The notes beneath the pieces were generated by a model. That model saw only the letters and a list, made by a program, of their open reading frames with translations, did no database searches and was not told where the DNA came from. DNA of 57,337 nt, taken from Patescibacteria group bacterium. Lineage in GTDB: Bacteria > Patescibacteriota > UBA1384 > XYA2-FULL-43-10 > 1-14-0-10-43-13. Location of the stretch: positions 1-57,337 of the forward strand of contig JBAYHC010000001.1 in assembly GCA_041666325.1 (NCBI GenBank). Direction: 5' to 3'. Below are positions 3,278 through 44,600 of the stretch, piece by piece (position 1 is the first letter of the stretch; every line of letters begins with the position of its first letter). A program made the translations under genes and the position numbers.

Positions 3278-3748
3278 CTATTCGTACTTAATTCGTTCAA
3301 TAAGCTTGATTTTGTCTGCTGTTAAATATTTGGTCTTTGGAAATTGACATCTTCGCAAGATAATTGCTGCTTCTTCTCTTTTCGTGATTAAATTCATATC
3401 ACCTGTTGACCAACTGTCATTTATGGCGCGGTAATGTCGGTCGTTCATAAAAACATAGAGCGTAATGAGCACGGAATTAATATCTGAAATAAGTACATTA
3501 ATTTGCAACTTTTCTCTTTTATCAATTTTGTTAAAAATTTCCTGGCTATTTGTCCCGTACTTAATCAGCAGCTCATCGATGTAGTTCTCAAGCTCGTAAA
3601 ATTTCTTAAAGAAAGAAATGATCTCTTGATTCGACAGACCACTGCGAGACAGTTCCTTATTAGCTCCAAGCGTCAATCTTATTCCAATCACAACTCCTGC
3701 CAATGAGCCTATGATTGTTAGCAATGAAGTAGTGAATGTGGTATTCAT
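3278..3748 (-). CDS. Hypothetical protein with N-terminal TM helix
   Basis: 156-aa ORF. Hydrophobic N-terminus LLTIIGSLAGVVIGI. AT-rich. 29 nt downstream of the preceding ORF. No recognisable motif. Confidence 0.55.
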   Translation of the reverse strand: MNTTFTTSLLTIIGSLAGVVIGIRLTLGANKELSRSGLSNQEIISFFKKFYELENYIDELLIKYGTNSQEIFNKIDKREKLQINVLISDINSVLITLYVFMNDRHYRAINDSWSTGDMNLITKREEAAIILRRCQFPKTKYLTADKIKLIERIKYE

Positions 3749-3777: not shown

Positions 3778-4167
3778 TTATTCTAGAGCCAGGATCAATT
3801 TCACAGCGGCAATTAGTTGTCTTATCGCAAATCCACGTTCGATTGGGGAGCGTCCCCGAGTTCCCTTTTCGCTGATTGCACGCATGGTAGATCTTGGAAT
3901 AACATGGATCTGATCCAGCGAGGCTGATTGGCACTCAATGCCCAAGCTCCGAATAAATTCTAGCATCCTTTCATTGGTGCGACTAAAGAATAGCTGAAGA
4001 AACCCAGGCTTCTCCTTCTCGGTGCTGGCGATCAGCTCCCGAAGTTGTTCCGGGAAATCGCTAAAATCTTGTCTCTCCCGATGCTCGCGCAAGGCGCTTT
4101 GAAAACCTTTCCTCTCCCCATCTGACAAAGTTTTATAAATGTTTGGATCAGCATAGATCTCAGGCAT
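3778..4167 (-). CDS. Hypothetical protein
   Basis: 129-aa ORF with a GAGAGGA ribosome-binding site before the ATG. 71 nt downstream of hsdR. No recognisable motif. Confidence 0.55.
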   Translation of the reverse strand: MPEIYADPNIYKTLSDGERKGFQSALREHRERQDFSDFPEQLRELIASTEKEKPGFLQLFFSRTNERMLEFIRSLGIECQSASLDQIHVIPRSTMRAISEKGTRGRSPIERGFAIRQLIAAVKLILALE

Positions 4168-4238: not shown

Positions 4239-7200
4239 TTATTCCCCCCAATCTTTACAAACGGTTTCTGCTTGAAGCAAAACCAGTTGCGTGGCGCCCT
4301 CTTGCTGGTCTGGCGGGTAGTTGTATTTCTTTAGCAGCTTCTTGATGTAAATTCTGATCTTCGCCCTAACATTTTCTCGGAATGCCCAATCGATGGTTGT
4401 GTTATCACGGAGCATCTGAACTAATTCCTTGGCGATTAATTTTAATATTTCATCGCCCAATTCAGTAATTGCCGACTCGTTCTCGGCGAGTGCATCATAG
4501 AAGGCAACTTCATCATCGGTCAGCCCTAAATCTTTACCTTTCTGTGTTTCTTCACGAATCTGCTTTGCCAAATCAATCAATTCGGTAATCACCTGAGCCG
4601 CCTCGATTGTCCTGTTTTGATATTTGCGAATTGTTGATTCAAGGAGTTCTGCGAAAGACCGAGACTTAACCATGTTTTTGCGCGAAAAAGACTTTATTTC
4701 ATCATTTAATAGCTTTTTTAATGCCTCTAACGCCAAATTTTTGTGTTCCATTCCCCGCACTTCCTCCAAGAACTCGTCGGAGAGAATTGCCACATTCGGT
4801 TTATCCAGACCGGCAGCTGTAAATACATCAACTACCTCATTGGAAGAAACCGCACTGGACACGATTTGTTTAATAGCGTAATCGTAATCTTCCTTTGTCG
4901 GCCCGGAAACAATCGTAAGTTTTACTATACTCGCCTTAACCGCCTGGAAAAAACCCACCTCATCCCGGATCTCCAAGGCTTTGTCATGCGGAACAGCCAA
5001 AGAAAAAGCTTGGGATAATTCAACAACCGCTTGAAGGTACCGCTTCTTGCCATCGTCGAGCCCTAGGATAAAATCAGCGGCTTGTCGAATAATGCCCGGC
5101 TTTTGGCCAGCCGTGGTAGTAAAAAACTTATCGTAATTAAAACCGTGATACATCGCTCGCACAATCTCATTTTTCTCAAGCATCACAGAGACAGCTTCCT
5201 CCTGCGGTATGGCCGTTTCTTCCTGGTCATTCTTGGTATAATTCGCCAACGCTTCTTTCAATTCCTGCGCTATGCCAAGGTAATCAACAATCAAACCGCC
5301 TTGCTTGTCTTTGTAAACTCGATTAACCCGGGCAATTGCCTGCATCAAGCCATGTCCCTTCATCGGTTTGTCAAAATACATTGTGTGGAGACTGGGCACG
5401 TCGAATCCGGTTAGCCACATATCGCGCACAATTACCAGCCTTAACCCATCAGCTGGATCCTTCATTCGGTCGGCCAATTTCCCCAACGCATCTTTGTTGT
5501 GTATGTGTGGCTGATAATTTTGCGGATCAGCAGCACTGCCAGTCATAACAACTTTAATTATTCCTTTGCCATCGGCAGAATCGTGCCAATCAGGCCGCAA
5601 TCTAACAATCTCGTCATACAATTCAACGGCAATCCTGCGGCTCATCGCCACAATCATTCCCTTGCCTTCAATCGCCGACAAACGATTTTCAAAGTGCTCA
5701 ACAATATCTTTAGCTACTAGCCTAATCCGTTTTTCACTCCCAACCATCGCTTCCAGCCGTGCCCACTTGTTCTTGAGCTTTTCCTTGAATTCAAATTCTT
5801 CGCCCTCGGTAATATCCTCAAATTCCGGATCGATTTTGGGTCGTTCCGATTCCAAGAGTTCAATTTTGGCCAAACGCGCCTCGTAATAGATCGGCACGGT
5901 GGCATGGTCATCGATAGCTTGAGCGATATCGTAGATATCAACATATTCACCAAATACCTGGCGTGTGTTTTTGTCCGTTAATTCGATCGGCGTGCCGGTA
6001 AAACCAATAAAGGTAGCATTGGGCAAAGCGTCGTGCATGCTTCGAGCAAATCCATCAATGAAATCATACTGGCTGCGATGAGCTTCATCCGCGATCACCA
6101 CAATATTGCGCCGCTCCGAAAGTAACTGCTTTTCAAATAAACCTTTTTCGCAAAACTTTTGAATCGTTGTGAAGACAACTCCACCGGCAGTAACTTTTAA
6201 TAATTCGCGAAGATTCCGGCGATTGCTTGCCTGCTTGGGAGTTTGGCGCAATAAATCGGAAACGCCACAAAAAGTGGTGAAAAGCTGATGGTCGAGATCA
6301 TTCCGATCGGTTAGCACCACAATCGTCGGGTTGTCCAACGCCTCGATCAGTTTTCCGGCGTAAAAAGCCATCGTCAGACTCTTACCAGAGCCCTGGGTAT
6401 GCCAAACCACTCCGCCACGCCGGTCACCATCAAGTGCCGTTGCCTTTATCGTCCGTTCAATCGCTTTATTTGTGGCATGGTACTGGTGATAAGCTGCCAC
6501 TTTTTTAACAATATTGTCCTTTGATTCTTCAAAAACAACGAAATGGGTGATTAGATCCAGCAACCGTGATTTATCAAACGCCCCGCGAATTAGCACCTCG
6601 AGTTGTGGAATTAGATCCGATGCCTTTTCGTCGCCATCAATAGTTCGCCAACGCATAAAACGATCAAGATCGGAGGTAATTGTCCCAACCCGGGCATCAT
6701 GGCCATCAGAAATAACCTCCAGTTCGCTATAGACAAAAAGCGAGGGAATATCGTTTTTATAAGTTTGAATCTGATTGAATGCATCCTTAACCCCGACTTT
6801 TTCATCGGCCAAGTTCTTGAGCTCAAAAATCGCGACGGGCAAACCATTAATAAATATCATCAAGTCAGGTCGGCGATTAGCGTTTTCAATGACTGTAAAC
6901 TGATTCAGCACCAACCAATCGTTGTTCTCTAAATTTTTCCGATCAACCAGCCAAACTTTATCCCCGGCAATCGAACCGTCCGCCCGGCGATATTCAACAT
7001 CGACACCATTAACCAAATACTGATGGAAAAGCTTATTGTTCGAAGTAATCCGAGAACTTTCATGCGTCACATTCAAAATTTTCTTCGCCGCTTCTTCCTG
7101 TGCCTCAAAGGGAATAGCGGGATTGATTTTGGCTATCGCCGCCCGCAACCGCCCAACCAAAACTACATCAGAGAAGTTCTCCCTTTCCGGCTTTTCGCTC

Positions 7201-7295
7201 CCCGGCTCAATATCCGGCCCAAAAGCATAGCCATACCCCAGCCCTTGAAACCACTCAATCGCCGCCTGTTCTAAATCTGATTCGGTGTATTTCAT
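4239..7295 (-). CDS. hsdR: Type I restriction enzyme R subunit
   Basis: 1018 aa. N-terminal PD-(D/E)xK-like [19 protein letters not shown]2 helicase motifs [10 protein letters not shown] and ADEAHRSQ. Sits in an operon with hsdM/hsdS. Confidence 0.95.
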
Positions 7296-7985
7296 TTATT
7301 TTAACCTATCAATAATTAGTGGAATGGCCACGAGCGTAGCGATCGCTATGAATATTTTCCAAATATCTAGCCTAATACTTCGGCCAAACTGAATTTCGCC
7401 CTCAAGAATTAATTTCGGGTAAATTCTTGCCGGCCACGAAGCAAGAACCAACCAAAGGGCGGACGGAATGAAGTATACATACAAGGGGGTGTTCGCTCCA
7501 TGCAAAATCACTATTTTGAAAAACAAAAACACAAAAACAATTGAAATAAAGTGGATTACAAACAAGGCTGGGTAAGAATGGAAGAACCAGTTCCAATTAC
7601 CTTTGCCCAAAAGCTGAAGAAGCCGATCTTTGTAGTATGCGTAGTCTTTTCTGTCAGAAGTCTCAATTTTTAAGCTTATTGAGTCCTGAATAAATCTGTC
7701 AAAACTAAGGCGCAAACTCGTTGCGCTGCCGTAGTAAACAAGTGTTAAAGTTTTTAAATTTGGAATATTGCATTCTCTGAATTTATTTAAGAAGTCACTT
7801 TTATTATCTTCTGTACATTCATAGCCGTTTTTTAACGAAAAGCTAAAGTCAGGCTCTCGATGGTATGATTTACTAGCTTGGTTTTCCTCTTTTGCAATAC
7901 TCTCAAATACATCTATGATTGATTCTAGCCCCTGCAGCGTTAAGTTTGACGATTTAATGTCATAGGTGAAAGATTCTTTTCTCAT
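7296..7985 (-). CDS. Hypothetical polytopic membrane protein embedded in the R-M operon
   Basis: 229 aa: a soluble N-terminal half, then about 3 hydrophobic helices (ALFVIHFISIVFVFLFF, YVYFIPSALWLVLASW, IFIAIATLVAIPLII). Its stop TAA abuts the hsdR ATG. Its start overlaps the upstream stop (ATGA). Confidence 0.7.
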   Translation of the reverse strand: MRKESFTYDIKSSNLTLQGLESIIDVFESIAKEENQASKSYHREPDFSFSLKNGYECTEDNKSDFLNKFRECNIPNLKTLTLVYYGSATSLRLSFDRFIQDSISLKIETSDRKDYAYYKDRLLQLLGKGNWNWFFHSYPALFVIHFISIVFVFLFFKIVILHGANTPLYVYFIPSALWLVLASWPARIYPKLILEGEIQFGRSIRLDIWKIFIAIATLVAIPLIIDRLK

Positions 7986-8752
7986 TTTAACCCCAACTCC
8001 CCACCCAACAATCTTTTTGTAAAAGAATTATTGTTCTGTCTTTTTTCTGTAATCTTTATTTGTCGAAGCATTTCCTTCTCGTCCTCCGACCAAAAATCGT
8101 AGAAACCTAAGGTAAAAACTTTAGTGATTGCCTTAACGTTGTCGCCACTTATCCGTAGCTCGAACTCATACTTTCCTGGTTTGACAATATTTGGTCTCTC
8201 GCCTCTAGCGACCATGTTTGGTTCGACAATTGTGTCGAGTTTCAATAGACATCCGCCCTTGCCCTCTTGGACAAAATGACCAAAGTCACAATGGCGGAAT
8301 AGAGCACTCGGGATTCTGGTCAGATGAGTTGATGGTTGGAAATGGCTCCATTTCAGATTCATGGGTAAAAAATGCCCTACTGGAACAACAGATCCATTCT
8401 TCTTTACTGCATTAAATTTGCTAACCATCACTTCGACATTTTCTCCTGGCCTGTTATTGATATTCTCGACCAAGATGCGAATATAAATTGCGTTGCCAAT
8501 CGGCAAAGTCATGATCTGGTTATCCCGCACAAATTGACCGGTTAGCATAATCTGATGGCAGTCAGGAGGGGTCAAATTTATTTTCATATCAAGCAAAGAC
8601 TGGTTAAGCCAATCCTTGATTTTCTCTTGAAAAAGTGCCACCACCACCGCCAAAAGGGTTATGGCCGCTAAAATTACTTGAATCCAGAACCCTTTTTCGT
8701 CTGTAAGTACGGGGATAATGTTTGGAGCAGAGGTTATTGTCATGCTTGTCAT
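7982..8752 (-). CDS. Hypothetical single-pass membrane protein embedded in the R-M operon
   Basis: 256 aa. N-terminal TM FWIQVILAAITLLAVVVALF, then a beta-rich-looking domain. ATGA overlaps at both ends (with hsdS and the 229-aa gene). Confidence 0.7.
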   Translation of the reverse strand: MTSMTITSAPNIIPVLTDEKGFWIQVILAAITLLAVVVALFQEKIKDWLNQSLLDMKINLTPPDCHQIMLTGQFVRDNQIMTLPIGNAIYIRILVENINNRPGENVEVMVSKFNAVKKNGSVVPVGHFLPMNLKWSHFQPSTHLTRIPSALFRHCDFGHFVQEGKGGCLLKLDTIVEPNMVARGERPNIVKPGKYEFELRISGDNVKAITKVFTLGFYDFWSEDEKEMLRQIKITEKRQNNNSFTKRLLGGELGLK

Positions 8753-10005
8753 ATAATCCTCAACTTTCCGCTCATTAGGTGAGGCAAAAAAGAATCACGG
8801 ATTTGGGACAAGGTTTCTATTTGATTCATGTTATCAACCAGTTTTTGCATGATTGGATTTGCGATTGTGCCAAACTCTTCCAATGCATCATCGCTCGGTA
8901 ACTCCAAATCAACGCTTGCTGTTTCAATAGGACTTAAATTCTGTTGAGCTGTTCCTTTTGAAATGGCGATCAAAAAATCCTGAAACTCTTTTTGACGAAA
9001 TAGAAAGTACGCAAAAGCATAATCTCTCTTATCGTATGGGACAAGTTTTGCCACCCGTTGGTTTAATAGATAATCGTCTCTGCCGTAAACTAAACAAGTT
9101 CTGCCGACATTACCAGTCAAAGACAAAATAATATCTCCACTTTGCAGGATATCGGATAACGGCATTTTGGAGGGTGGGTTTTTGATTCTATTTGTACATT
9201 TTGTAACAAAGTTTCCGTCTTGAACATTTTTTATCGTCACCAAACCAAACTTTCCATTGTCTCCAAAATTTTCACTTGAAAATGAAAAACCAGAAAGGAT
9301 TTTGATAAAATTTCCAAGCTTCACCGATCGCCAATCATCTTTGTTTTCGAAATCAATGAACCACTCTTTAAAAATCGCCTGGCCGAGGGATTCTAGGGTT
9401 TTGTTCATTTTCCGATTGAGCTCAATCTTATCATCCAGCGCCCCCAAAACCTCCGCAATTTTTCGTTGCTCGGCGAGTGGCGGAAAAAGTATTAAAGATT
9501 CTCTGATCGATTCAGTCGTCAAGTTCACCTGGACTCCACTTCTCGCCGTTTTTCTCAACCGCTCAATATATTCGTTTGTGTTAATGTAGAAATACAAAAA
9601 CAATGGATCGATGTTATTGTTAGGAGTAATTTTACCTACGCGTTGGTTAACTAGAAACTTTTCGCCTCGTATTCTAGCCGAATGACCAAGCAAGTTCATT
9701 GACGCTTTCATGTCTGTCATGCACATTAAAATATCGTGTGGCTTTGCAATAAACCTGTCGAGTAAGTGAGCCTTTTCTTTTGGGAAGCAATCTTCCTTTC
9801 CAGTAATCTTTAACCCACCGCCAATCCCAATGTTTCCCATTTTGAAAACAGGCAGAGCGTCGTTCGATTTGCCAACAAAATCTTTACTGATAAACGAGTA
9901 GCCATTACAAAAATTAGCTACTTCTTCAAGCTTTTTAATTTCCCAATTCTCCGGAATCAGGCCGAGTTCGGTTTCTTTGAACTTTTTTGTTAATAATGTT
10001 TTCAT
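8749..10005 (-). CDS. hsdS: Type I restriction enzyme S (specificity) subunit
   Basis: 418 aa with two target-recognition halves separated by conserved helices (PPLAEQRKIAEVLGALDDKIELN and C-terminal LQKLVDNMNQIETLSQIRDSFLPHLMSGKL). Confidence 0.9.
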   Translation of the reverse strand: MKTLLTKKFKETELGLIPENWEIKKLEEVANFCNGYSFISKDFVGKSNDALPVFKMGNIGIGGGLKITGKEDCFPKEKAHLLDRFIAKPHDILMCMTDMKASMNLLGHSARIRGEKFLVNQRVGKITPNNNIDPLFLYFYINTNEYIERLRKTARSGVQVNLTTESIRESLILFPPLAEQRKIAEVLGALDDKIELNRKMNKTLESLGQAIFKEWFIDFENKDDWRSVKLGNFIKILSGFSFSSENFGDNGKFGLVTIKNVQDGNFVTKCTNRIKNPPSKMPLSDILQSGDIILSLTGNVGRTCLVYGRDDYLLNQRVAKLVPYDKRDYAFAYFLFRQKEFQDFLIAISKGTAQQNLSPIETASVDLELPSDDALEEFGTIANPIMQKLVDNMNQIETLSQIRDSFLPHLMSGKLRII

Positions 10006-11054
10006 TTGGGAAGAATATTTTTTGGTACTGATTGTGTTATTTCATAAATTGGGCCGGTATCACTTTTTGTGTCGTTATAGTTATCGTAACCAGTTGGCAA
10101 GTGCTGAAACATTGCATTTACGCCTTGTTGTATCATTATGGTACGCTCGTCCGACTCGGCGCCAGCACTAATGAAATCATTCAGGGTTTCTGCAACATTT
10201 TTCCTGTGCTTATTGACCGACTCCAGATGAGCGTTAATACGATAATTTTTTGAAGCATAAGAAACCGCATAGGACAACAGCGAGACAAGCGCGAGTTTAA
10301 GTATTCCGTACTGAATATTAAATACTGTGCCGGTTTTTATTCGCCAGCCCCCGATATCGCCCACAAGAAATAAAATTAGGTAGACAACAATGTTGGCTAC
10401 AATAATTCTCATTAACCACTTGAAGTATTTATCTCTGTCAACTTTCCAGCGCTCCTTCTCAGCGGAGTGAATTTTTACTTGAGATTCAAAATATTTTCCA
10501 GTGGTCTTTGCGGCAATCTCGCCCTTTGCTTTGCTTACCTCGTCGCTTTTTGTTTCGAGTTGGGATATTTTACCCTGTAATTCTTCAATTATCTGCTGGT
10601 ACTCCTTTCGTGCCTTTGTCACCTCGGCTTGCATTGCAACTAGCTCTCTTTGCTTGGGATTCTTTTGTAGCGAACGCTGCCTCAAGTGTATTAGAGACGA
10701 TATAATATTTCTGAAAACCTGATTATATAATTCAATAATCATTTGTTCGAAATTATTTTTCTCACCGGTTACATCACTACTCTGTGATGGATCAAACGCT
10801 TTTAGCCAATTTAATCTTTCTAGATACTGGGTTAACAATGAGTCTACAGCTTTTGCTTGTTCATCAGGCAGCACATCTTTATATGAGTGCATAACAAAAT
10901 CCGCAAAGATATCTCTCAGTTCCTCAAGCTTTGGATAAATAGCATCAAACGTTAGCGTTCCAAGCTTGTCCTTATTTAACGCTAATTTTTGAATATCAAT
11001 ATTTTTCAGATTGTCAGGAGAAACTAACTGGTCAAGATCCAGAACGATGCTCAT
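10002..11054 (-). CDS. Hypothetical coiled-coil protein with two C-terminal-half TM helices, inserted between hsdM and hsdS
   Basis: 350 aa. Heptad-like charged stretch (ELVAMQAEVTKARKEYQQIIEELQGKISQLETKSDEVSKAKGE). Two TM helices (LMRIIVANIVVYLILFLVGDIGGW; ILKLALVSLLSYAVSYA). Stop overlaps the hsdS ATG (ATGA). 27 nt after hsdM. Confidence 0.7.
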   Translation of the reverse strand: MSIVLDLDQLVSPDNLKNIDIQKLALNKDKLGTLTFDAIYPKLEELRDIFADFVMHSYKDVLPDEQAKAVDSLLTQYLERLNWLKAFDPSQSSDVTGEKNNFEQMIIELYNQVFRNIISSLIHLRQRSLQKNPKQRELVAMQAEVTKARKEYQQIIEELQGKISQLETKSDEVSKAKGEIAAKTTGKYFESQVKIHSAEKERWKVDRDKYFKWLMRIIVANIVVYLILFLVGDIGGWRIKTGTVFNIQYGILKLALVSLLSYAVSYASKNYRINAHLESVNKHRKNVAETLNDFISAGAESDERTIMIQQGVNAMFQHLPTGYDNYNDTKSDTGPIYEITQSVPKNILPK

Positions 11055-11081
11055 ATTAATACCTCTGAGTTGAAAGGCTTT

Positions 11082-12602
11082 TTAAAAACCAATTTTTGTT
11101 AAGTTTTCTTTAATTTTTTTCTCAAATTCTTTAGATTTCTCGAATTGATTGTTTAATTCAGAAGTCAATCGTTTCATCTTTTCTTCGAAAACTTCGTCGT
11201 CTTCCTCGATGATTTCCGATCCGACATAGCGGCCTGGCGTTAGGACAAAGCCGTTTTTCTCCACTTCCTCAATCTTGGCCGCTTTGCAAAAACCCTTTTT
11301 GTCTTCATATTTGCCATTGATGTTGCGCCAATTGTGGTAGGTTTCTGAGATTGTTGTTATATCTTCGGCCGTCAATTCGCGGTTCTTGCGGGTAACCATC
11401 TTTCCCATTTTTCTAGCATCAATAAAGAGAATCTCGTCATGGCGGTTACGAAACTTGTGGTCATAACGGTCTCGGGACACAAACCACAGGCAGGCCGGTA
11501 TTTGAGTCGAGTAAAATAGTTGGCTGGGCATCGCCACGATGCAATCAACAAGCCCTGCCATGATAAGATTTTTGCGGATCTCACCTTCGCCGGAAGTGTT
11601 CGAGGACATCGCCCCGTTGGACATAACAAAACCGGCAATACCGGTTGGCGAAAGATGGTGGATAAAGTGCTGGATCCAGGCATAGTTAGCCGAGCCGGTT
11701 GGCGGTACCCCATATTTCCAGCGGACATCATTGCGAAGTAGCTGGCCATCCCAGTCGCTATCATTGAACGGCGGATTGGCAAGGATAAAATCGGCTTTTA
11801 GATCCTTGAAAAGATCGTTATGAAAGCTGTTGCCGTATTCGATATTGCCCCGAATGTGCCGTAAGGCAAGGTTCATTTTGCAGAGCCGCCAAGTGGTGTG
11901 ATTTGATTCCTGGCCGTAAACCACAATGTCATCCTTGCGTCCTTCGTGATTGTGGTTAAAGACTTCTGTTTGGACAAACATGCCGCCGCTGCCGCAACAT
12001 GGGTCATAGACACGGCCAGAATAAGGCTCGATCATTTCAACTAAAAGCTTGACGATTGATTGCGGAGTATAAAATTCGCCGCCGCCCTTGCCCTCGCTAC
12101 CAGCAAAACGGCCAAGGAAATATTCGTAAATCCGACCGAGCAGATCCTTTGATTTTTCTTTACTTTCAGCTAAATCAATGTCACTGATGATATCGATAAC
12201 ACCGCCAAGCCTGAGTTTATCGAGGGCAGGGCGAGCGTAATCTTTTGGCAAGACACCCTTAAGATCGGGATTTTCTTTTTCAATGGCGATCATGGCGTCA
12301 TCGATAAGTTTGCCAATTTCCGGCTTCTTGGCACTGTCACGCAGTGAATTCCAACGAGATTCGCGAGGCACCCAAAAAATGTTTTCGGCTATGTAATAAT
12401 CCTTATCTTCGGCCTCATCTACCCCTTCTTCTTTGACCAACTTTTCATGCAATTGTTCAAATGAGTCGGAGATATATTTGAGAAAGATCAAACCGAGCAC
12501 AATGTGCTTGTACTCTGCCGGATCCATATTGTTGCGCATCTTATCAGCCGCCGCCCAAAGCTTCTCTTCGAAACCGATATTAGCCGATGTTTTGATTGCC
12601 AT
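11082..12602 (-). CDS. hsdM: Type I restriction enzyme M subunit (N6-adenine DNA methyltransferase)
   Basis: 506 aa. SAM motif [12 protein letters not shown], catalytic LANPPFN, HsdM N-terminal helical domain. Confidence 0.95.
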
Positions 12603-12604
12603 TT

Positions 12605-13228
12605 TTAGTCCTTTCGGATATCGATTAGTTGGAGATTGGAACCATCGGCAACCAGATATTGATAATCATTTAGCAATACCATCTTGTGGGCGGTGGTGTA
12701 GAAGTTGGGAAGACACTTTTTATAACTCTCTTTGAAGTGGTCGCTGCCCCAATGCGGGAAGACGATGATGTCGGTTATCCCCAGCCCCTTGGTACCTTTG
12801 AGTAATGGGGCTTTAGCCAGGTCGTCGAGATCTTCGGAGGGAGCAAGGTCTGGCCCGGCGACGATTGAGCCGGCCGATGAGCCGATGTAGTACTTGCCCT
12901 CTTTGACAAATTGACGGAAGAGCTCAAGCGAGTCGGTCTGCTGGAGTTGTTGCAGCAAGAAGAAGGTATTGCCGCCGCCCATCACTACTCCGTTGACTTC
13001 GGCTAATTGCTTGGCAATGTCATCTTTGGTTTTGCTGGTTAGAGAATAATCGGCGACCTCAAATCCAGCCTGGACCATCGAATCAATATCCAGCTTCAGC
13101 CAGGTTTTGTCGCCCTCTTCGACCTCTGATGCGGTAGTGATAAACAAAAACTTGGCCGGCTTGTCGATGTGCTCGCCTACCGATTTGGCCACCGTTTGTA
13201 AACTTGAGGTCAGAAAAATATTTTTCAT
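12605..13228 (-). CDS. Peptidase S51 (dipeptidase E-like) family protein
   Basis: MKNIFLTSS..., [29 protein letters not shown] (nucleophile Ser context). The ATG at 13228 is chosen over the upstream extension. The stop lies 2 nt before the hsdM ATG. Confidence 0.75.
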
Positions 13229-13430: not shown

Positions 13431-15101
13431 TTAGTCGGTGTTGTGGATTTCGAGGATGCGGTCGAGACGGAAGCAACGCTTCTCCTGCCGCTCGTGGCAA
13501 TACGCCTCGATGCCCAAAAACGTTTGACCCATGTAGTTCATCTCGCCTATGACATTGGGCGAGATGGTGCGGCGAGACTGGACATCGTTGGACTTGAGGT
13601 AGGTGATCTCGAGTGTGCCGGCGCAGTCGATGGCGGATTGGATGGCGGCGGTTTTCGCGTCCGCCGGGCATGTGTCAGCGGTCAGTCCGTATTGGTATGT
13701 GGTGATAAAGTTGTTTACCCGCCAATCCATGATGATGTGGCTCTTCTGCAGCGGCTTCTTCAGCACCAGGCCCTCGAAGCTGGTGCAGCGAGAGAGTGCG
13801 ACATAGGCTTGGCCGTGGGCAAAGGTGCCGTTGCCGATATCTAGAATGACACGGTCGAAGGTCTTGCCCTGGCTCTTGTGGATGGTGACAGCCCAGGCCA
13901 ACTTCATCGGGTATTGGGTGAAGCTGCCGACAACCTCGGAATCCAGAAAGCCCTTGGTTTCATCATAGAAGTAGCTGTACATTTCCCACGTAAACGGCGC
14001 CACTTCGACGGTCTTGCCGGTCGAAAGCTTGACATCGACTATGGTTGTTTCGATCTCCGTGTCGAGATCTTTGTCCAACTCGGTTACTGTCCTTATATTG
14101 ATAATTTGTCCGATCGAGCCGTTAACCCAGCGGGCAGAGGAATCATTGTTGAGCATCATTACTTGCGAGCCAACCTTAACTTCGAGGTTTTGGGCCGTAG
14201 GGAGATTGCGAAGTTCGAAGTTGCCACTTACCACTCCCTCGGAGACGAAGGAAGTGCTCTCGACACCAGCTAACTTTTCTTGATTGATGCCGTCAGCCAG
14301 GGCGTTTGTCGGTGTGAGGTAGACATAGAGTTGGTTTTTAGTTTCAGTAAAGTCTTGGTTGACTCGGCTATTCAATTGGGTAAGTTGCTCCGGGGTGATC
14401 GAGTTGTCGCGAACGGCATTGAGCAGGCCAATAAATTCTGTGTCACTCTGGCGGTAGATCTTGTCCAGCTCGACAAATTCCATTGAGAAATCGGCGGGAG
14501 CATCAATGTCCTGCAAGAGCACGCCTTGCGTTGCCAATTGCCCTGCTCTGGGCGAGAGACCAAAAACGTTGGCCGAGAAGAAGTAGGGCGTTGGATAGAG
14601 ACTGGCAAATATATCTTTCTCTCCGTTGCTGACGACCGGAGGCAATTGGTAGAGGTCACCAATAAAGATCATTTGGACACCGCCAAAGGGAAGATTTTGG
14701 TGATTGCCATTCAGGCGCATGAATTTATCGATGCAGTCGAGAAGATCAGCCCGAACCATCGATATTTCATCGATGACAATCATTTCGAGTTTCTTGCAGG
14801 TCTTGGCCTTCTTGTCGGTGGACTTTAATTGTTTAATTTTCTGCGGGGTGATGTCCGGCCGGAACCCGAAGAAGGAGTGGATAGTCTGGCCCTTGACGTT
14901 GAGTGCCGCCACTCCAGTCGGTGCCAAAACAACAAGCTTCTTCTTGGTGTGAAGCCGGAAGTGTTCCAGGAGAGTTGATTTGCCTGTCCCGGCCCTGCCG
15001 GTGATAAAAAGGTTTTTGTAGCTGTTCTCCAAAAGATTGAGCGCTGTTTTGAACTGCTCGTTTAACTCGATCGTCTTTGTCTCGTGTTTTGATTTGGTCA
15101 T
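13431..15101 (-). CDS. PIF1/RecD-like SF1 helicase with C-terminal WYL domain
   Basis: Walker A GRAGTGKST, Walker B VIDEISMV, TIHKSQGKTFDRVIL, AYVALSRC. The C-terminus LEITYLKSNDVQSRRTISPNVIGE...AYCHERQEKRCFRLDRILEI fits the WYL pattern. Confidence 0.85.
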   Translation of the reverse strand: MTKSKHETKTIELNEQFKTALNLLENSYKNLFITGRAGTGKSTLLEHFRLHTKKKLVVLAPTGVAALNVKGQTIHSFFGFRPDITPQKIKQLKSTDKKAKTCKKLEMIVIDEISMVRADLLDCIDKFMRLNGNHQNLPFGGVQMIFIGDLYQLPPVVSNGEKDIFASLYPTPYFFSANVFGLSPRAGQLATQGVLLQDIDAPADFSMEFVELDKIYRQSDTEFIGLLNAVRDNSITPEQLTQLNSRVNQDFTETKNQLYVYLTPTNALADGINQEKLAGVESTSFVSEGVVSGNFELRNLPTAQNLEVKVGSQVMMLNNDSSARWVNGSIGQIINIRTVTELDKDLDTEIETTIVDVKLSTGKTVEVAPFTWEMYSYFYDETKGFLDSEVVGSFTQYPMKLAWAVTIHKSQGKTFDRVILDIGNGTFAHGQAYVALSRCTSFEGLVLKKPLQKSHIIMDWRVNNFITTYQYGLTADTCPADAKTAAIQSAIDCAGTLEITYLKSNDVQSRRTISPNVIGEMNYMGQTFLGIEAYCHERQEKRCFRLDRILEIHNTD

Positions 15102-35619: not shown

Positions 35620-38600
35620 CTAATTGCGCCTGAACTTATTTATCAATGGTGCATCCTTCAGCCTCTTAGTCCAGCTGAAGGTCTCTTCCAGGGATTTAAC
35701 AACCAGCTGAAGAAGTGACTTTTCTTTGGTCGGGGTGATGATGGTTTGGTCTTGGGACTTGGTCATGTTGCCGGAAGCGTCTTTAGAGATGATTCTGAAC
35801 TGATAGGAGGCGTTGGGACGGATGTCGGGGATGATGACGGTGTGGGTCATGTTGAAGGTGGTGACTTCTTCAGTCTTGCTTTGGTACTCGTCAGAGATGC
35901 CTTGGCCGTATTCGACTTGGCTGGTAGAGGGCTCATCTGTCTCCCAAGTGATAATAGCCATGATCTTGGCGCTCTCGCCCGAACCGGTCGTGGTAACCTC
36001 GCTCTTGGTGGTGGAGATAACAGGCGGGGTGGTATCGGTGGGGGCAGTGAAGGTGGCATCACTTGAGGTAGCAACATTACCGTAGGAATCGGTTGATTTG
36101 ACTTGGTAATGGTAACTCTTGGCAGACTCTAAGCCGATGATGGTGACGGAGTGGAGAGTGGTAAGATCGGACTTGCCCTGTTCGGAGGTGTACGCCCCGC
36201 CTGCTGGACCAAAACTTACCTTGGAATCGGCATTGACGTTTGTCGTCCAGGTGATGGTGGCTTGGGTTGGTTTTAGATCTTCGATCTTTAAGCCAGAGAT
36301 GGTGGGTGTTGGCGGAATGGCAATGGCATAGTCATCAGAGGTGGTAGTGTTCTCATCTGCATCGGTCGCTTTAATCCTCACGTGATAAGTAGTACCTGGG
36401 GAGAGGTCTTCGAGCTTGATGGCGTGATCAGTGTTTTGGTTGGTCTCTGACTTGGTCGAGCCATAGCTCGTGGTGGTGCCATATTCCAAAACGGTAGTCG
36501 AGAGTTTGTTCGTGGTCCAAGTGACTGTAGTAGAGGTGTTAGTCGTCGCAGTGGGTGTGACTGAAGAGAGAGTGAGCGGAACACGTTCAGGGGTAGTGAC
36601 CTCAACCACCTCAGAGGCACCAGTAATCTTGACTTCGTTTTGGCTTAGAGTCTTAAAGTAGTATTTAGTGGAGGGCTCTAATTGCTGGACCAAGACAGAG
36701 TGAGAGAGGGTTGAGTCAAACTGACCGACGACCTGGGCGGCCGTGCCGGATGTGGTAGTGGTTCCCGTACCGGATTCTAGTGGTTCCTTACTGTAGACGA
36801 CAAAGCTATCAGCCAATTGGTCGGTGTTCCAGGTCACGGTAGCCCGAACTCCATACTCCTGTTTCCAGTTTTGGAGAGTGATGGTTGGACTTGCGGTAAC
36901 GTCGGGAGCAGCTCCTGGTTGGGAGGAGAGGACGGCTGTGGGGCGGGAGACATTGCCCAAGGTATCGGCTGTTTTGACACGGTAGTAGTAGCGTTGGGAT
37001 TGGTTTAATTTAACATCAAGGTAACCATTCTTTGTCGTTGTATCGAGTTGGCTAAAACTGCTACCGTCTAATGACCGTTCGACAGTATAATTAGCAAAGT
37101 TAGAAACATCCGGATCAGTCCATATTAGCATCAGTCGGTAAGTGCCAACCTCTAAATTGCTGCCATCTTTCAAGGCAAAATCAGTCGGCGTATTGGTAAT
37201 TGCGTTACTGGCAGAAAGCACGTTGTTGTAAGGATCCTTAAATTCAACATAGATGATCGCCGAATCTCCGAGGCTCCAACTTGATACAGTTGTCGGTTTA
37301 GCGCTCAATGTCGCCCACTCTGAAGCATTAGACATATCCTGGTTATTGGAAATTCGATACTGGATGGCCTGTTCGGTGGCGCCATCTTCCCGAGCCAGAA
37401 GAGTAATAGTGGCGGTGTTGTCGCCAGTGGCATCGACCAGAACAGCCGACTCGCCGTTGTTCACCCTTGGAGGCTTGGTATCCAAGAGAAGATCGTTAGA
37501 TATTCCCTCTCCCGTTCCTTGGTTGGTAGTGCCTTTGACTTTAATCTTGAAGCCCTGAAGGGCGGTAAAGTATTGGTTTGGATAATCGGTAGCAATTTGG
37601 TAATACAATGTATGACTAGAAATTGCTTCGCTCCCAGTGATACCAGCGCCAACATCACCTGAGAGTGCTGCTGTTGTAGCGTTGTGCCAGGTGGCGGTTG
37701 TGGGATTGTAATATTGAACAGTGACTGCTGAATCATATCTTAGACCATAGTCGACCTTGATTTTACCAGTACTCTGTTGGATGGCAGTAACACTTCTGGG
37801 AGCAATATCGGCAGGCATTGCTTCAACTTGGGTTGAGGCAGCAGATTCGATCTCGACTTCAGTCGGATCTAAGTGAACAGACTTTAAGGTGAAGTAATAT
37901 GTTGTACCGTTGGTAAGGCCAGTAACAGCGTATTGAGAGACAGTGCCGGGAGTGACGCTCGGTTGACTTCCAAGCTTAGTGCCAAGCTCCCCCTGGGTAG
38001 TTGACTGATAAATATTCATCTTCGAAACTGCTGCATCAGTGGTATTCGTCCAAGCTAGGGTAACGGATTCATGACCAGCAGTGGCTGAGACTTGACTTGG
38101 AGCATGAGTTGGAACAACGACCACACCGGTAGTGGCGGTGTATGAGGTGCCCGGATCAGTTGAATCATCGGTTACTGTAATTCTGTGGTTACCGCCAGTA
38201 CCGAAGATGAAAGCAGCGTTATCAAAGGTTTTTGCACCAAGGTCGGCCACTTGGAAGGTATACTTTGAGACTGACGTATTAGGCAGGGTTACTGCTGAAT
38301 CAGTCGAGGTAAAGTAAACCTGGCCGGTGTAATCAGTCTTCACATTGCCCAAGACATCGTAGGCAGTGACAATGACATCAGAAGTAGCGGCGCTATCGAT
38401 GGGCGCCGTGGTCATTGCTGGAGAAAAGGCAATGCCCAGACTACCCAGAGAGGCGGGTTTGATCTTGATTGGTAGGTTTGTTGGTGTAATGGCATCAGCA
38501 CCGTTCTTGCCGTGGAGATAGAAGGCCAGACTTGTGCCACCAGTGCTTACAGTAAAGGCAGAGGAATCAAAGATGTGGCGGCCGTTGTCATATGTATCCC

Positions 38601-41600
38601 CTGTCGTAGTTCGTAGATCATGCTGACCATCGATGTAATTGCTGCTCCAAGTGAAGTCTAATTTGTTGGAAGCGGCATCATAGGGGAAGGTGTAAACCTT
38701 GTCTGCATCCATGCTAAACCAGATGGGGCCGCTGTAGTCATACTTAAGGTTCGAGTAGGCATCGTAGGTAGTAACGACAATGTCGTAAGGAGATTGAGAG
38801 CCTCCCGCCAAGCCGGTTGAGTTCCAGGGAAAACCGGCCGTGGCAAATTGAGCCGTGCCGGCTTGGGGATAATCGCTCATCCCATAGTGGTCTAAGTTTC
38901 CTGGCCGAACCTGAATAGAATAGCGTTGATCTGTGGGTGATTGATCAGATAGTGTGCCATCAGTAACAGAAAGGCTAATGGTTTCAGTCTTCTTCAAGAC
39001 GATTGAGGTGGCAGCAGAGACACCGGAGGTAAAGGTGGTAGTTGTTGTTGTGCCGAAGTTGATTGGTGTTGAGGTCTTGTCGGTCGCAGTTGGATAGATC
39101 GTTCCGCCGCCTGGGGCAGCAGCGGCATTAGCCGCTCCCGAGAAGGTAATGCTTTTGTCCCCGGTGTAGTCAGTGGCAGTATTGTCATATTGGTCATACG
39201 CCGTGATGGTGCCGGTCAAGGTTGCACCAGTTGTTGTAGAGGCAGGAGAGCCAGAAATGGAGAGTTGAATGCGAGAAGCGACATCAGCGGTGATAGTTGC
39301 GGCTTGGGTTGCATTGGTCCAGGATTGGCCGGCCGGATCAGCAGTCAGAGTAGCTGAGCCGACAGTCTCATCGTAGAAGTAAAAAGTACCGGAAGAGACA
39401 TTTGTCAGGGTGATTGAGGTAATGACCGCCGCCTTACATGCCACTGCCGAGGAGTTGTCCGAGCAAAAGAGTCTAGTTGTGCCATTGGTAGCAAGATCAG
39501 AGGTTAGATCTATCTGCTGGCTGGCAACTGTCACATCTTCATCGATCGCATTACGAACTACTGCAGTGTAAAGCGTTGAAACCGTGTGGGCAATGGTCGT
39601 TTTGGCATCATTAGTAAAGACTACCTTGTCAATCGCCGCAATAGTAAAGCTGCGAGTGGAAGCCGTTGAATATTGATTAAGCGTACCGCAAGCACCACTT
39701 GGATCGCAGGAGGAGAGTCGGACATAGTAAGCCTGACCTTGAGTTAGAGCTGAAGTAAAAGTAAAAGTTCCGGCAGTTCCCGAGGTATAGCCATCTTGAG
39801 TGCTCGCTCCCCCGCCGTCGTAATTCATGCCAGTATAACTACCTTGGTAGCCACCAGTATTAAATGAATTAGTATCATTGGCTTGAGTAAAGGTTGCGGC
39901 ATTGGCAGTAAAACCAGAGTCGGTAGCAATTTCAACCTTCATCCGATACCAATCGGCTGGGTTATCGGAATCCGTGGCAGTAAAACTGATTGTTGGTAAT
40001 TGGGATACATTGGTCGCAGTATCGGCTGGGGAAGAGAAAGTGACAGCGGGAACATGCTGAAAAGCAACCGTTCCGATAGTACCATTCCCATTTTTACTTG
40101 CAGTTGCGCTACCCTGCGAATATGTATCGGTTCCTGTTGGATAAATTGCGATTGATCCGCCAGAGCCATCTTTATACACACCGTTAGCCGTAATTGCACC
40201 GCTGCCAGAGAAACTAGACAATAGCATGTAGATGCTACCGCCGGAACCGCCGCTAAATGCCACACCACTGCCAGTTGTACCACCATTCACGCTAATCGTC
40301 CCACTCTGAGCGAAAGACGTGTCCCCGGTAATAATAACGGCAATTCGACCGCCACCACCACCGCCATAGCTGTTTGATGTACCGCCAACCGCTGAAATCG
40401 TGCCGGAGTTTGTTAGTTGATTGGCTGTGATAAAGATGCTACCACCAGAACCATTGCCAGCATTGCCGCTGACGCCATTGGCACTAATCGTACCGCCATT
40501 GTTATTTAGAATACCGGACACAGTGAGCTTAATGGCACCACCACCGTAAGAACTGCCACGACCACCCGAACCAAGACTCAGCGGCGAAGCAACGGTACCA
40601 TAGGTTGGTCCGCTTGTCCCGTTCTCATTGCCACCTCGGCCACCATAACTACCACCGGCATAGTTATTTACACCCTTGCCAGGTCCCGCATCAGGCGCAA
40701 AGCCCTTGCCATCAGCATTAAGCGTACCACCAGAATTGATAGTAATATTTGTCGCAGTAATGGAACCGCCAGTACCGCATTTCACCTCAGTAGAACAACC
40801 GGTTGGAATCGGATCAGGGTTTGTAGACGCATTGCCATCCAGAACAAGCGTGCCCCCGCTATTTATAGTGATGGAGGAAAAAGTATATGAAACTGCTGTT
40901 GGCGGATTTTGTGTTGAATCCGTATTACCAAGAATGAGAGAGGTCATATTGCCGGCACCACCCAGCGTCAAATTGCCCGAAGCTCCCATCTGCGAACTTG
41001 GCAAAGAGATAACACCCGCCATTCCGACGATCGGTACAGCATTAACATTTACACTGCCGCTAGTAACAGTTAACGCACCGCTATATGTTGTCGTAGTCGC
41101 AACAATGGTAATATTTCCGCCATTACTAGCATAGTATCCATTAGCGCTTATCGCCCCTGCTCCCTCGAACGTCCCGGCATTAATATAAACTGATCCGCCG
41201 GCACCGCCGGATGTATAATAAGCACCGCTAGAAGCGCTGCCACCGTTAGCCGAGATCGTATTACCCTGTGTTAAGGTGCCAGAAATCGATAGAGCGATAC
41301 GTCCACCACCGCCAGCACCATAGCTGTTAGTCACGCCACCTGTGGCTGAAATGGTTCCCGTACCAGACATTGAAGCAGCAATAAGGTAAACACTACCACC
41401 GGAACCGTTACCGGCATTGCCGCTCCCGCCAATTGAAGAAACAGCGCCATTGTTTGTTAAAGCTCCCGAAACCGTCACCTTGATCGCGCCGCCACCAGCT
41501 GTGCCGCTTACCCCGCCCGAGCCGATATTTACCGGCTCGGTGCTCGAACCATAAACCGATCCACTAACAGCGCTGCCAGAACCGTTGCCGCCACGACCAC

Positions 41601-44600
41601 CATAACTACCGCCGGAATAGTTTCCTGATCCCTTGCCTGGGCCGTTATTCGCCGAATAGCCCTTACCATCGACATTAATCTTTCCTGTAGAATCTACTGT
41701 CAATGCATCAAAAAGTAGGTTCATTTTATAAGTTTCACCTGCTGCGTCAGTAGAATTGGCATAATGCGTTAGGATTCCCCCATTGGTCACTATCCATGTA
41801 CCAGAACCGGTATAGTCCTGAACACCAGCAGAGGTATCCGGAAGCACAGTGCCGGCATTAACGGTTTTACCGTTATTGTTAATGGTGACTGTTTTAGTAC
41901 CGTCAGCCAGTTGCTTATAAATTGTTCCGGCACCGCCACCAGCATCAGAGCTCACCCCATTACTTCCGCCATAAGCTTGAGCGGCAACTGAACCAGTGTT
42001 GTTGCCACTAGTTAGAGTGATTGCAATGCGACCACCTCCAGCGCCCCAAGTACCGGTTCCGGTATAGGCATTTGCGCTGATTGTCCCGCCGCCTATCATT
42101 GTACCGGACGTGATATTTACTGTACCACCGGAGCAAGAGGCACTATTAGAAACAGTTTGCCCGCCTGCGCTAACTATGCTGCCAGTCACCAAATTAGTTT
42201 GGCCCGTAACATTAAGAATGATCGCGCCGCCGCCAAAGATATCACTCCTACTACTACCTGAGCCAAGGCTAATTGGGTTTGTTACCGAACCATACGTCGA
42301 ACTGGCAACCTGGTCAACGCCAACACCGCCATAGCCAGAGGTCAATTTGCCAGCAGTATAACCTGGCCCCTGACTCTGGCCATAACCCTTGCCGGTAACA
42401 TCAATTTTGCCAGTCGCGTCAACTGTCAAGGCGTCAACCGAAAGCTTCACTTTTTTGAGTAGATTATCAGCCGTTGCGGTGACAGCGCTCGAGTTGGGTA
42501 ATGAAGTTAGGATTGCCCCGTTCGTAATCGTCCATGTGCCGGTGCCAGTGTAATCCTGCACTCCAGCTGAGGTATCAGGCAAGATTGTCCCGGAGTTTGT
42601 TGTAATAGCATTATTATTAATCGTGACTGTTTTTGTGCCGCCGAGACTTTGGTAAACAGTTCCCGCCCCACCACTCGAAGTACCCCCGGCTGAACCTACC
42701 GCTCCGTAAGCCGTCGGTGTCCCGGAGTAAGTACTTGTAGTTGCTGTGATTGAGATTCGCCCACCACCGGAAGCGCGCTGACCCGCTCGGCCATTAGCCG
42801 TAATTGTACCACTACCGGACATTGAACCTGCGGTTATGTAAACACTACCGCCGGCGCCAGGATCATCAGCACCGAGGCCATTAGAGGAAATCGAACCGTT
42901 ATTAGCCAAGGCCCCACTAACAGTAAGCTTGATTGCTCCGCCACCGGATCCGCCAGAGCCGCCGGAGCCAAAATTAACCGGCGCCGTAACTGAACCGTAG
43001 GTATCCCGACTTGTTGTGGACTGCCCGCCTTTGCCGCCATAACTGCCACCACAATAGTTCGAACAAGCCGTGTTTGGACCCTGGTTGTAATCATAGCCAA
43101 GGCCATCAACATTGACTATGCCGTTAATCGTCAAGTCGCCCGTAATGGTCAGATCAATTTTATATGTCTCGGCAGTACTATTATCCGAGTGTGACAAAAT
43201 ACCATCGGCCGCAACAGTTAAATTGGTAAGACCGGAAATTGTCCCGGTCGAGTCGGCATTAAAGGTAACCTTCGAAATTGAGAAGTTTGCCGAAGTTGTT
43301 ACTGTTCCACGATTAGTAATTGCCCCGGCAGCGGTGCCGCTGCCACTAGAGAGAGCAGTCTCCGAATCCATGATTAACGTTGTCCCGGCAATGACAATCA
43401 GCTCAGCTTTGCGATCCACGGTGACAGTATCGAATTGCCATGTCTGACCGGTCGGAATCTCTGTGCTATAACCGGAACGCACCAAATTGTTATTGTCGAC
43501 TATCAAGGCTCCGTAAGTTTGGCCGCCGGTGTTTTTATACACCGTTCCGGCGCCGCTCTGATATGTATAGGTTGAAGTGCCGCAATATGCGGAAACTGTA
43601 CCGCTGTGGGTATTTGTCGCAGCAATAATTGCCACGCGACCGCCGCCGCCGCTTCGTTCGTTGGAGCTGTTTCCGCCATTGGCACTGATCGTGCCATTAC
43701 CGGAAACCGAGTTAGCACTGATAGATACGCTTCCACCAGAACCGGTCTCAGCCACAGCAGCGCCATTGGCACTGATCGTGCCATTTTGGGTGAGTGAACC
43801 CGTGATTGCCAATCTGATCGCGCCACCGCCCGCCGCCCCTCCTCCGTCACCGCCGGAGCCTAAGGCTAGCGGCACTTTCGGGTCCCCATATGTGGCCGCG
43901 CTTGTCCCCCAACCCTTACCGCCATAGGTTCCGGCGTGCCAATCAGCTCCGGCACTACCGGGACCGGTATTTTGGGCAAAGCCTTTTCCGTCCGCGCTGA
44001 TTTTCGCCCCTGTTCCAACGGTTACATCATTGGCAACTTTAAGGATTATCCCTCTTCCGCACTTTGGTGTTCCCGAAGAACAACCATTTGGAGTGACGAC
44101 ACTGCCCGAATCATCAGTCGGGTTGACGGTGGTATCGCCGGAAAAGACGAGGGTGATGCCACCAGTAGCAGCTTGGTTGAGGGTGATGTCGTGTTGGATA
44201 TCCCAGATATGGGCGGCGGTGCCGCCGGTGATGGGGTTTTTGTCAAAGGTAATGGTTTGGTTGTAGTTGTTTTGAACGATGAAGTCGTAGATGTTGTTGT
44301 TGACAGCTCCGGTTGAGACTAAAGCAGCTGAGCCGTTGCCTGGGGTAGTGTTGGCAACAGCGCCATCGAAGATCACATCGTCATTCGCCGCGGGAGCGTG
44401 GCCGCAATCCCAGTTGCCGGCTGTCGTCCAGGCGGCATTGGCAATGCCCTGCCAGGTGCAAGCGACCCCACCGGCCCCAACATTCGGGTCAACAGTGATC
44501 GGGAATTCGGCAGTGGCTAGGAAGTCAGGATCAATGGTGTATTTAATAATCTCTTGATTACCCCTGTTGTCATTCTGAACTGAAAGTGAAGAATCTAGCA

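Follow-up and report, generated by a model that had tools for sequence, protein, structure and literature searches.

Accessory membrane-protein genes in the junctions of a type I restriction-modification operon from a probable Patescibacteria genome

An operon with three embedded genes

The 57,337-nucleotide stretch of DNA analyzed here (contig JBAYHC010000001.1, referred to as the window) comes from a probable member of the Patescibacteria, or candidate phyla radiation (CPR). It carries an apparently intact type I restriction-modification (R-M) operon, hsdM-hsdS-hsdR, within which three further genes are nested, called here A350, B256 and C229 (350, 256 and 229 amino acids). A preliminary description of this DNA, made from its letters and a list of open reading frames (ORFs), had given the gene order, the coordinates and the junctions, and our reading of the ORF list and the sequence confirms all of them. 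On the minus strand, an S51-family peptidase gene is followed by hsdM, A350, hsdS, B256, C229 and hsdR (Table 1; coordinates of these features are positions in the window). Two nucleotides separate the S51 gene from hsdM and 27 separate hsdM from A350, the next three junctions are ATGA overlaps, and the TAA of C229 abuts the ATG of hsdR. A Shine-Dalgarno sequence, GAGG, lies within the 27-nucleotide gap, 9 nucleotides upstream of the A350 start codon. All three hsd genes are full length and have the diagnostic domains of type I systems in Pfam, NCBIfam and PADLOC, including two target-recognition domains in hsdS and, in Pfam, HSDR_N, SWI2_SNF2/ResIII, T1R_D3-like and T1RH-like_C domains in hsdR.

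Hydropathy and AlphaFold2 models bear out the earlier view that the three inserts are membrane proteins of no recognized family. A350, B256 and C229 have no family in Pfam, NCBIfam or PADLOC (version 2, including its PDC models), and these libraries likewise gave no P-loop or nuclease match for any of them. The weak matches to LeoBC (2e-3), HMMR_N and Sec62 are coiled-coil or transmembrane noise. Sequence searches of the PDB returned nothing meaningful, no relatives were found in IMG/VR viral contigs or GenBank phages, and a search of plasmids gave nothing except one match on a Vibrio plasmid to a distant A350 subfamily. The inserts had also been described as more AT-rich than the hsd genes. 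This is true only in comparison with hsdM and hsdR, whose guanine plus cytosine (GC) contents are 45.4% and 45.6%; hsdS, at 38.6%, is as AT-rich as the inserts (37.0-41.5%). Promoter-like and terminator-like sites are as numerous as shuffling predicts, which speaks neither for nor against a single transcript; the inserts would be expressed together with the hsd genes. From base composition we estimate the chance of a 229-codon open frame in DNA of 37% GC at about 1e-7.

The S51 peptidase had been taken as the leader gene of the operon. None of 58 related loci searched has an S51 homolog, and the genes upstream of the operon vary among the annotated closest loci. Because no related locus has a counterpart beside hsdM, and because the gene has the GC content of the flanks (48%), we treat it as an unrelated upstream neighbor and reject it as part of the R-M or accessory set. 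Its ORF runs to 13288 in the ORF list, whereas an independent gene call gives the 207-codon gene of Table 1.

Two slots with changing occupants

The junctions between hsdM and hsdS and between hsdS and hsdR (the M-S and S-R slots) are occupied by different genes in orthologous operons, as shown for three sister operons in Table 1. Further occupants of the two slots include a KAP NTPase, a SEC-C protein, pP_pnuc_1 and DUF3800, and the conflict domains found in the slots of sister operons comprise HEPN/Ymh, PIN, KAP, Schlafen-like and GmrSD. A gene wedged between hsdM and hsdS, which the preliminary description considered unusual, is present in four of the nine type I operons of this lineage that were found independently through B256. 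A350 and B256 occur together only in the window and never in the other 75 loci. C229, which by hydropathy has a soluble N-terminal domain of about 130 residues and about three transmembrane helices, matches only itself among 5.8 billion proteins and has no relative in the PDB or in viral contigs. It is a lineage-specific orphan; sister operons have PIN_12 or other genes at its position. A second assembly that contains the window operon (L074; JGI 3300037810, Ga0376277_0025314) carries C229 without change. Hence, the three inserts are independent cassettes rather than one module, and the two junctions are slots for horizontally shuffled accessory genes. Moreover, the sister operon L059 (Ga0376277_0006881) derives from the same metagenome as this second copy, carries an entirely different set of genes in its M-S slot and has PIN_12 instead of C229, so slot variants coexist in one community.

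The route by which B256 reached its slot can be read from a footprint at its 3′ end. In L059 and L061, the last 60 or so nucleotides of hsdS are nearly copied at the end of B256, and over 75 nucleotides the two ends agree at 56 positions in L059 (10679-10753 against 9930-10004) and at 49 in L061 (8361-8435 against 7612-7686). The encoded peptide tails are near-identical (LSQIRDSLLPRLMSGKLRVK and LLQISDSILPRLISGKMRVK), and both ATGA junctions flanking B256 in these operons are copies of one hsdS-end junction. Because hsdS-tail repeats close B256 in both cases, the gene entered this operon lineage at the 3′ end of hsdS through a duplication that left HsdS intact and copied the ATGA junction; the footprint illustrates a way for an insertion to spare hsdS. 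The window retains a marginal form of this repeat, with 36 of 75 nucleotides identical, where random pairs share 19.8 +/- 3.9. Among about 5000 random pairs the best reached 36 as well, and in local alignment the repeat falls short of the 99th percentile of the null. The window's B256 ends in a tail of roughly 17 codons that resembles the HsdS C-terminus in decayed form, and two of the window's three ATGA overlaps may stem from the same duplication, marginal as the repeat is here.

No tail footprint of this kind exceeds the null for C229 or A350, and no sharp recombination breakpoint was detected in hsdM or hsdR, along both of which identity is fairly even. The coupled junctions had suggested one co-translated unit rather than later insertions. 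The separate distributions of A350 and B256, the orphan status of C229 and the footprint of B256 show instead that no ancestral, co-evolved unit is involved: the inserts arrived later and were fitted precisely into their junctions.

The A350 and B256 families

In the AlphaFold2 model of A350 (mean predicted local distance difference test score, pLDDT, 76), a helical N-terminal domain (residues ~13-131, pLDDT ~90) leads into a helix of about 100 residues (133-231) that enters the first transmembrane helix. After a short loop, the second (~247-267) continues as a cytoplasmic helix (247-296). Lysine and arginine counts favor a hairpin with both termini in the cytoplasm. The most conserved stretch of the family, SYAxSFASKNYxINxxLxxxNKHRKNVAETL, follows the second transmembrane helix and includes the motif NKHRKNVAETL. 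A word-indexed search gave 18 clusters, and an exhaustive profile search raised this to 3001 representatives at E<=1e-3, with 1467 left at E<=1e-10, so that the family, counted in representatives of clusters at 50% identity, has at least 3000 members. Nearly all relatives are 320-350 amino acids long and align from end to end. A350 thus belongs to a large, unnamed family that combines a helical N-terminal domain, a coiled-coil stalk and a transmembrane hairpin.

The preliminary description proposed that the inserts are membrane-disrupting effectors, and for A350 some weak, sub-threshold SLATT/DUF6161-like features agree with this idea. A scan of all 18 close members gave coiled-coil noise only, and the window's A350 has no match to DUF6161 and none to SLATT at E<=1. 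However, sub-threshold matches were obtained among 93 relatives, to DUF2207_C (13/93), DUF6161 (11/93, best E 8.8e-6), SLATT_1 (4/93, best E 2.1e-5) and SLATT_4 (3/93). The consensus of a distant subfamily, c7, aligns over residues 104-315 with positions 11-209 of the 216 in DUF6161 (PF19658) at 5.5e-5, scoring 23.2 bits against a gathering threshold of 27. Another relative, P0182, is a chimera in which an A350-type N-terminal domain is joined to a SLATT_1-like half with two transmembrane helices that replaces the usual one. Residues 184-301 of P0182 match positions 7-111 of the 122 in SLATT_1 (E 3.6e-3, 17.8 bits, gathering cut-off 26.3), which hints at modular exchange of sensor and effector parts.

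Like SLATT_1 to SLATT_6 and DUF6161 proteins, the C-terminal half of A350 consists of a stalk end, two transmembrane helices and a conserved cytoplasmic helix, and is of similar size. In contrast, the helical N-terminal domain is specific to the A350 family, and the partners of A350 are R-M genes rather than SMODS, SLOG or reverse transcriptase. The two-transmembrane half therefore has a DUF6161/SLATT-like layout and is possibly a remote homolog rather than an established member. DUF6161 itself has been flagged by a protein-language-model screen as a predicted defense family without known homology (10.1101/2025.01.08.631966).

The close clade of A350, probably from Patescibacteria, was analyzed in 19 non-redundant loci at 30-53% identity; distant members are at about 20%. 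A recognizable R-M gene lies within two genes of A350 in 17 of the 19. A methyltransferase gene is immediately upstream on the same strand in 13, and in two more it is divergent from A350. These arrangements span type I, type III and type II-like systems (Table 1). A CPR genome has few DNA methyltransferase genes among some 700-1000 genes, and the association with methyltransferases in 13 of 19 loci is therefore far beyond chance (against a background of a few per cent, by our own estimate). The identity of A350 is uncoupled from that of HsdM (32% and 64% in L056, 39% and 24% in L001), so the A350 gene moves relative to the R-M backbone. The contexts of distant members are more varied, and the R-M link is a feature of the close clade and not of the whole superfamily.

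Two further observations concern A350 neighbors. DNA N6-methyltransferases beside A350 homologs either carry a LexA DNA-binding domain and a Peptidase_S24 autocleavage domain as a fusion or have this pair of domains encoded directly upstream (Table 1), which suggests SOS-type control of an R-M methyltransferase. On the Vibrio tubiashii plasmid pFP31 (L072), a distant A350 relative is one of a series of single genes on the same strand, with spacers of about 100-500 nucleotides, that also encode Hhe, a HEPN-associated protein, a 5′-nucleotidase, GIY-YIG and AbiH. The layout of this locus resembles an integron-style cassette array with many defense genes.

B256 is modeled with an N-terminal tail of about 18 residues, a transmembrane helix at 19-40 and a beta-sandwich at 54-236 (AlphaFold2, pLDDT 89, predicted template modeling score 0.78). 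The sandwich is probably cytoplasmic because family members have on average 1.4 lysines and arginines before the transmembrane helix and 3.5 after it. In the family alignment, D64, H66, S136-H137, R153 and C155-D156 are invariant or nearly so, and these polar residues suggest a putative metal or active site. The top match in BFVD, an uncharacterized haloarchaeal pleolipovirus protein (2.4e-7, TM-score 0.44), was set aside as uninformative. The homologs form 89 clusters, mostly from Patescibacteria metagenome-assembled genomes, and type I, II or III R-M genes adjoin 14-15 of the 23 close loci. In type I operons, B256 usually follows hsdS directly with a 4-nucleotide overlap and often lies just before hsdR. 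An all-against-all comparison of neighbors revealed no conserved partner gene, and its slot neighbors are not consistently membrane proteins. B256 thus represents an N-terminally anchored family that also moves between R-M types. The preliminary description had proposed a check of whether homologs of the inserts recur near R-M genes elsewhere; those of A350 and B256 do, and C229 has no relative that could.

Table 1. Features of the window operon and contexts of related genes (aa, amino acids; ranges without a locus name refer to the window)
Feature	Locus or position	Strand	Details
S51-family peptidase gene	12605..13228	minus	207 aa; Pfam Peptidase_S51 2e-31
hsdM, type I methyltransferase subunit	11082..12602	minus	506 aa; HsdM_N and N6_Mtase 8.5e-108; PADLOC MTase_I 5e-218
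A350, M-S slot	10002..11054	minus	350 aa; no curated family
hsdS, specificity subunit	8749..10005	minus	418 aa; Methylase_S, two stretches; PADLOC Specificity_I 4e-80
B256, S-R slot	7982..8752	minus	256 aa; no curated family
B256 3′ end, degenerate direct repeat	7982..8056	minus	repeats hsdS 3′ end (8749-8823), including ATGA junction
C229, second gene of S-R slot	7296..7985	minus	229 aa; orphan
hsdR, restriction/translocase subunit	4239..7295	minus	1018 aa, complete; PADLOC REase_I 1112 bits
Slot occupants	window		M-S: A350; S-R: B256, then C229
Slot occupants	L059		HsdM 78%, HsdR 69% identical; M-S: four genes including a Schlafen-like SLFN_AlbA_2 protein; S-R: B256, then PIN_12
Slot occupants	L061		HsdM 80%; M-S: two uncharacterized genes; S-R: B256, then a 211-aa protein
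Slot occupants	L022		HsdM 63%; M-S: Hypoth_Ymh; S-R: B256 alone
A350 in type I hsdM-A350-hsdS	P0008 contig, L004, L041, L049, L051, L052, L055-57
A350 in type III Mod-A350-(AAA_15)-Res	L045, L050, L058
A350 after small N6_N4 methyltransferase and HNH nuclease	L047
A350 divergent from LexA/S24-N6_Mtase fusion	L001, L053
LexA/S24 with N6-methyltransferase near A350	L001 7547-9394; L004 7401-8033 and 8036-9991; L041, L051		211-212-aa upstream genes in L041 and L051
Distant A350 member			beside NgoPII and C5 methylase
Distant A350 member			upstream of an HsdR-like gene and an M/S fusion
Distant A350 member			on an integrase island with HEPN_Apea
Distant A350 member			adjoining FtsW/MurG
Distant A350 member, single gene in Vibrio plasmid array	L072, NZ_CP117031.1 184405-203283		with Hhe, AbiH, GIY-YIG and HEPN-associated protein
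Distant A350-superfamily member	L075 5173-12730		between HSP20-DnaK and ClpB; Bacteroidota contig
B256 in type I operons other than the window (nine)	L011, L016, L017, L020-22, L059, L061, L062
B256 with 4-nucleotide overlap onto type III Mod	L008
B256 near ResIII helicase	L010
B256 after N6_N4 methyltransferase and MutH-like nuclease	L012
B256 after N6_N4 methyltransferase	L013
PIF1/AAA_30-family helicase	13431-15101	minus	weak WYL domain
Small ORF	3778-4167	minus	129 aa
Small ORF	3278-3748	minus	156 aa
Very long ORF	35620-46038	minus	3472 aa
Very long ORF	48639-52565	minus	1308 aa

Possible roles and known systems

The interpretation we prefer, with about even confidence, is a composite one: an apparently intact type I operon has two slots in which cassettes turn over, the inserts are defense or conflict genes, and A350 is a SLATT-like membrane effector. 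Judged by their embedding, the inserts would act as extra, largely autonomous anti-phage or conflict genes. A350 would most likely be a two-transmembrane effector of the SLATT/DUF6161 kind, whose cytoplasmic N-terminal domain would sense a trigger and whose stalk would drive oligomerization of the transmembrane hairpins. The membrane would then leak or depolarize, and the infected cell would be sacrificed. The soluble domains of B256 and C229 are predicted to lie on the cytoplasmic side as well, with no assignable biochemical activity. By context, the two insert families are good candidates for extra anti-virus genes.

Several observations weigh against this interpretation. No defense-specific domain is present in A350, B256 or C229, whose proposed role in defense is read from genomic context. 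No match to SLATT or DUF6161 reaches the gathering score, either for the window's A350 or for its relatives, and Foldseek searches of the PDB gave nothing for A350 (best E 0.43) and only generic immunoglobulin-, arrestin- or Kir-CTD-like sandwiches for B256 (E >= 2e-3, TM-score <= 0.42). The contexts of A350 come from a small sample, 19 + 6 loci that are mostly on short metagenome contigs. About a third of the close B256 homologs have no R-M context, and nearly all distant relatives, from Nitrospira, Planctomycetota and Acidobacteriota, adjoin unrelated genes; SNase, beta-lactamase, radical SAM and transposase genes are among the neighbors outside R-M systems. The preliminary description had named homologs outside defense contexts as evidence that would speak against its proposal, and in part such homologs exist: distant A350 relatives lie beside FtsW/MurG and, in the case of L075, in a stress-chaperone neighborhood with DnaK and ClpB that does not fit a defense role for the whole superfamily. 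Finally, if A350 is an autonomous cassette, its regular place after a methyltransferase gene is left unexplained.

Some of these same observations would be expected if the inserts were cargo without a defense function, that is, membrane proteins that evolve fast, serve in stress or bring no benefit, and have settled in junctions that tolerate insertions and are well expressed. In that case, hot spots of insertion or recombination, and not function, would explain the R-M link. An orphan such as C229, the duplication at conserved hsdS sequence by which B256 arrived, the distant A350 relatives beside chaperone and cell-wall genes, the many B256 homologs outside R-M systems and the lack of a detected functional domain in the inserts are all consistent with this explanation. 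We nevertheless regard it as unlikely. A350 lies beside type I, II and III systems, which have no common insertion sequence, and in many lineages the members of the A350 and B256 families have kept both their full length and the invariant motifs, which points to selection on both families. Moreover, recognized conflict domains occupy the same slots in sister operons, and no transposase or integrase flanks the operon within the window.

It is very unlikely, in our judgment, that A350, and perhaps B256, is instead an accessory subunit without an independent defense function, one that ties the methyltransferase or restriction complex to the cytoplasmic membrane or regulates it there, for instance where these episymbionts have their DNA entry machinery. 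The consistent position of A350 right after methyltransferase genes across R-M types would suit such a tether, as would the predicted membrane anchors and cytoplasmic soluble domains of both proteins and the overlap of insert and hsd ORFs. However, sister operons whose HsdM proteins are 63-80% identical have unrelated genes in place of A350, which shows that the R-M system can do without it. In addition, B256 has left an insertion footprint, some family members have no R-M system nearby, and a tether would have to recognize methyltransferases of different folds and subunit structures.

The association of the close A350 clade with unrelated classes of methyltransferase is not cleanly accounted for either by an autonomous cassette or by a guard of the PrrC type. 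One possibility is that this CPR-type clade is a generic restriction guard, with B256 as a second independent module of the sort. As a two-transmembrane effector, A350 would monitor the activity or integrity of the co-encoded methyltransferase or R-M system, whether of type I, II or III, and collapse of the membrane would follow once restriction is disabled by a phage. We consider this very unlikely; if true, bacteria that largely lack CRISPR would have, behind their main antiviral defense, a portable backup that works with any type of R-M system. The guard suggested in the preliminary description, in which membrane proteins are held inactive by the type I complex or its methyltransferase, are released upon phage inhibition and kill through the membrane, is just as unlikely: the position of A350 downstream of (or divergent from) methyltransferase genes, the coupled junctions, the SLATT-like architecture and the precedent of PrrC are in its favor, but the partner methyltransferases (HsdM, type III Mod, small N6_N4 and C5) are unrelated, which makes a conserved, specific protein-protein contact unlikely, distant A350 relatives stand alone in defense arrays or housekeeping contexts, the three genes do not travel together, and none has a PrrC-like P-loop or nuclease domain.

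PrrC itself is soluble, combines an N-terminal ABC-ATPase-like domain with a C-terminal domain that acts as a tRNA anticodon nuclease, and is specifically masked by EcoprrI. The locus studied here resembles the E. coli prr locus in that an accessory gene lies inside a type I operon, and members of the close A350 clade hardly ever occur away from R-M genes. Unlike PrrC, the inserts are predicted membrane proteins without an NTPase or nuclease domain, and A350 and B256 also accompany type II and III systems or no R-M system at all. The rlo genes of Campylobacter jejuni are another example of accessory genes inside type I operons. PrrC is found almost only inside such operons (10.1101/2024.01.29.577857).

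That an operon of this kind would be an apparently undescribed analogue of prr, as first supposed, is an overstatement, since embedded genes in type I operons have already been described (10.1101/2024.01.29.577857; PMC11411939). Payne et al. (2024; bioRxiv 10.1101/2024.01.29.577857) reported defense genes embedded in type I R-M, BREX, DISARM and Hma operons ("guilt by embedding"). Such candidates are labeled PDC and HEC in PADLOC. Over BREX, DISARM and type I R-M systems combined, the authors counted 17,432 non-redundant embedded genes, of which more than half lack an assigned function. The survey used RefSeq genomes, and the words "membrane" and "transmembrane" are absent from its text (10.1101/2024.01.29.577857); the inserts of the window are membrane proteins from a probable Patescibacteria genome. 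As in that survey, the inserts are nested between core genes of a multi-gene defense system, and homologs recur embedded in or adjacent to such systems for A350 (17/19) and B256 (14-15/23), although not for C229. With respect to its exclusion of mobilome and housekeeping genes, the inserts match no family, yet distant A350 relatives occur in cell-wall and chaperone neighborhoods. The TgvAB genes interrupt an active type I operon and give independent, complementary phage defense (PMC11411939). TgvAB is a type IV restriction enzyme with recognizable domains and demonstrated function, whereas the inserts described here lack recognizable domains. What is new, then, is the families, which are absent from current libraries; the presence of accessory genes inside type I operons is not.

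Patescibacteria have tiny genomes and few CRISPR systems and rely heavily on R-M, for which reason genes that repeatedly ride in their R-M operons are the most obvious place to look for lineage-specific immunity. The link between A350 and methyltransferases needs explaining, whether the answer proves to be defense, regulation or membrane tethering. If A350 is a membrane effector coupled to R-M, the PrrC idea would extend from a single E. coli nuclease to a widespread mechanism that does not depend on the type of R-M system. If it is not an effector of this kind, the locus nevertheless shows clearly how cassettes are exchanged slot by slot in type I operons.

The surroundings of the operon contain a few other genes that merit mention (Table 1). 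No tRNA gene or Rfam match was found within the window. Directly upstream of the S51 gene is a PIF1/AAA_30-family helicase gene, which may be a further defense-related gene adjoining the operon. Two small ORFs lie directly downstream of hsdR on the same strand, and L059 likewise has two uncharacterized genes downstream of hsdR (221 and 198 amino acids, the first with four transmembrane segments). Farther away, the window contains two very long ORFs, also on the minus strand.

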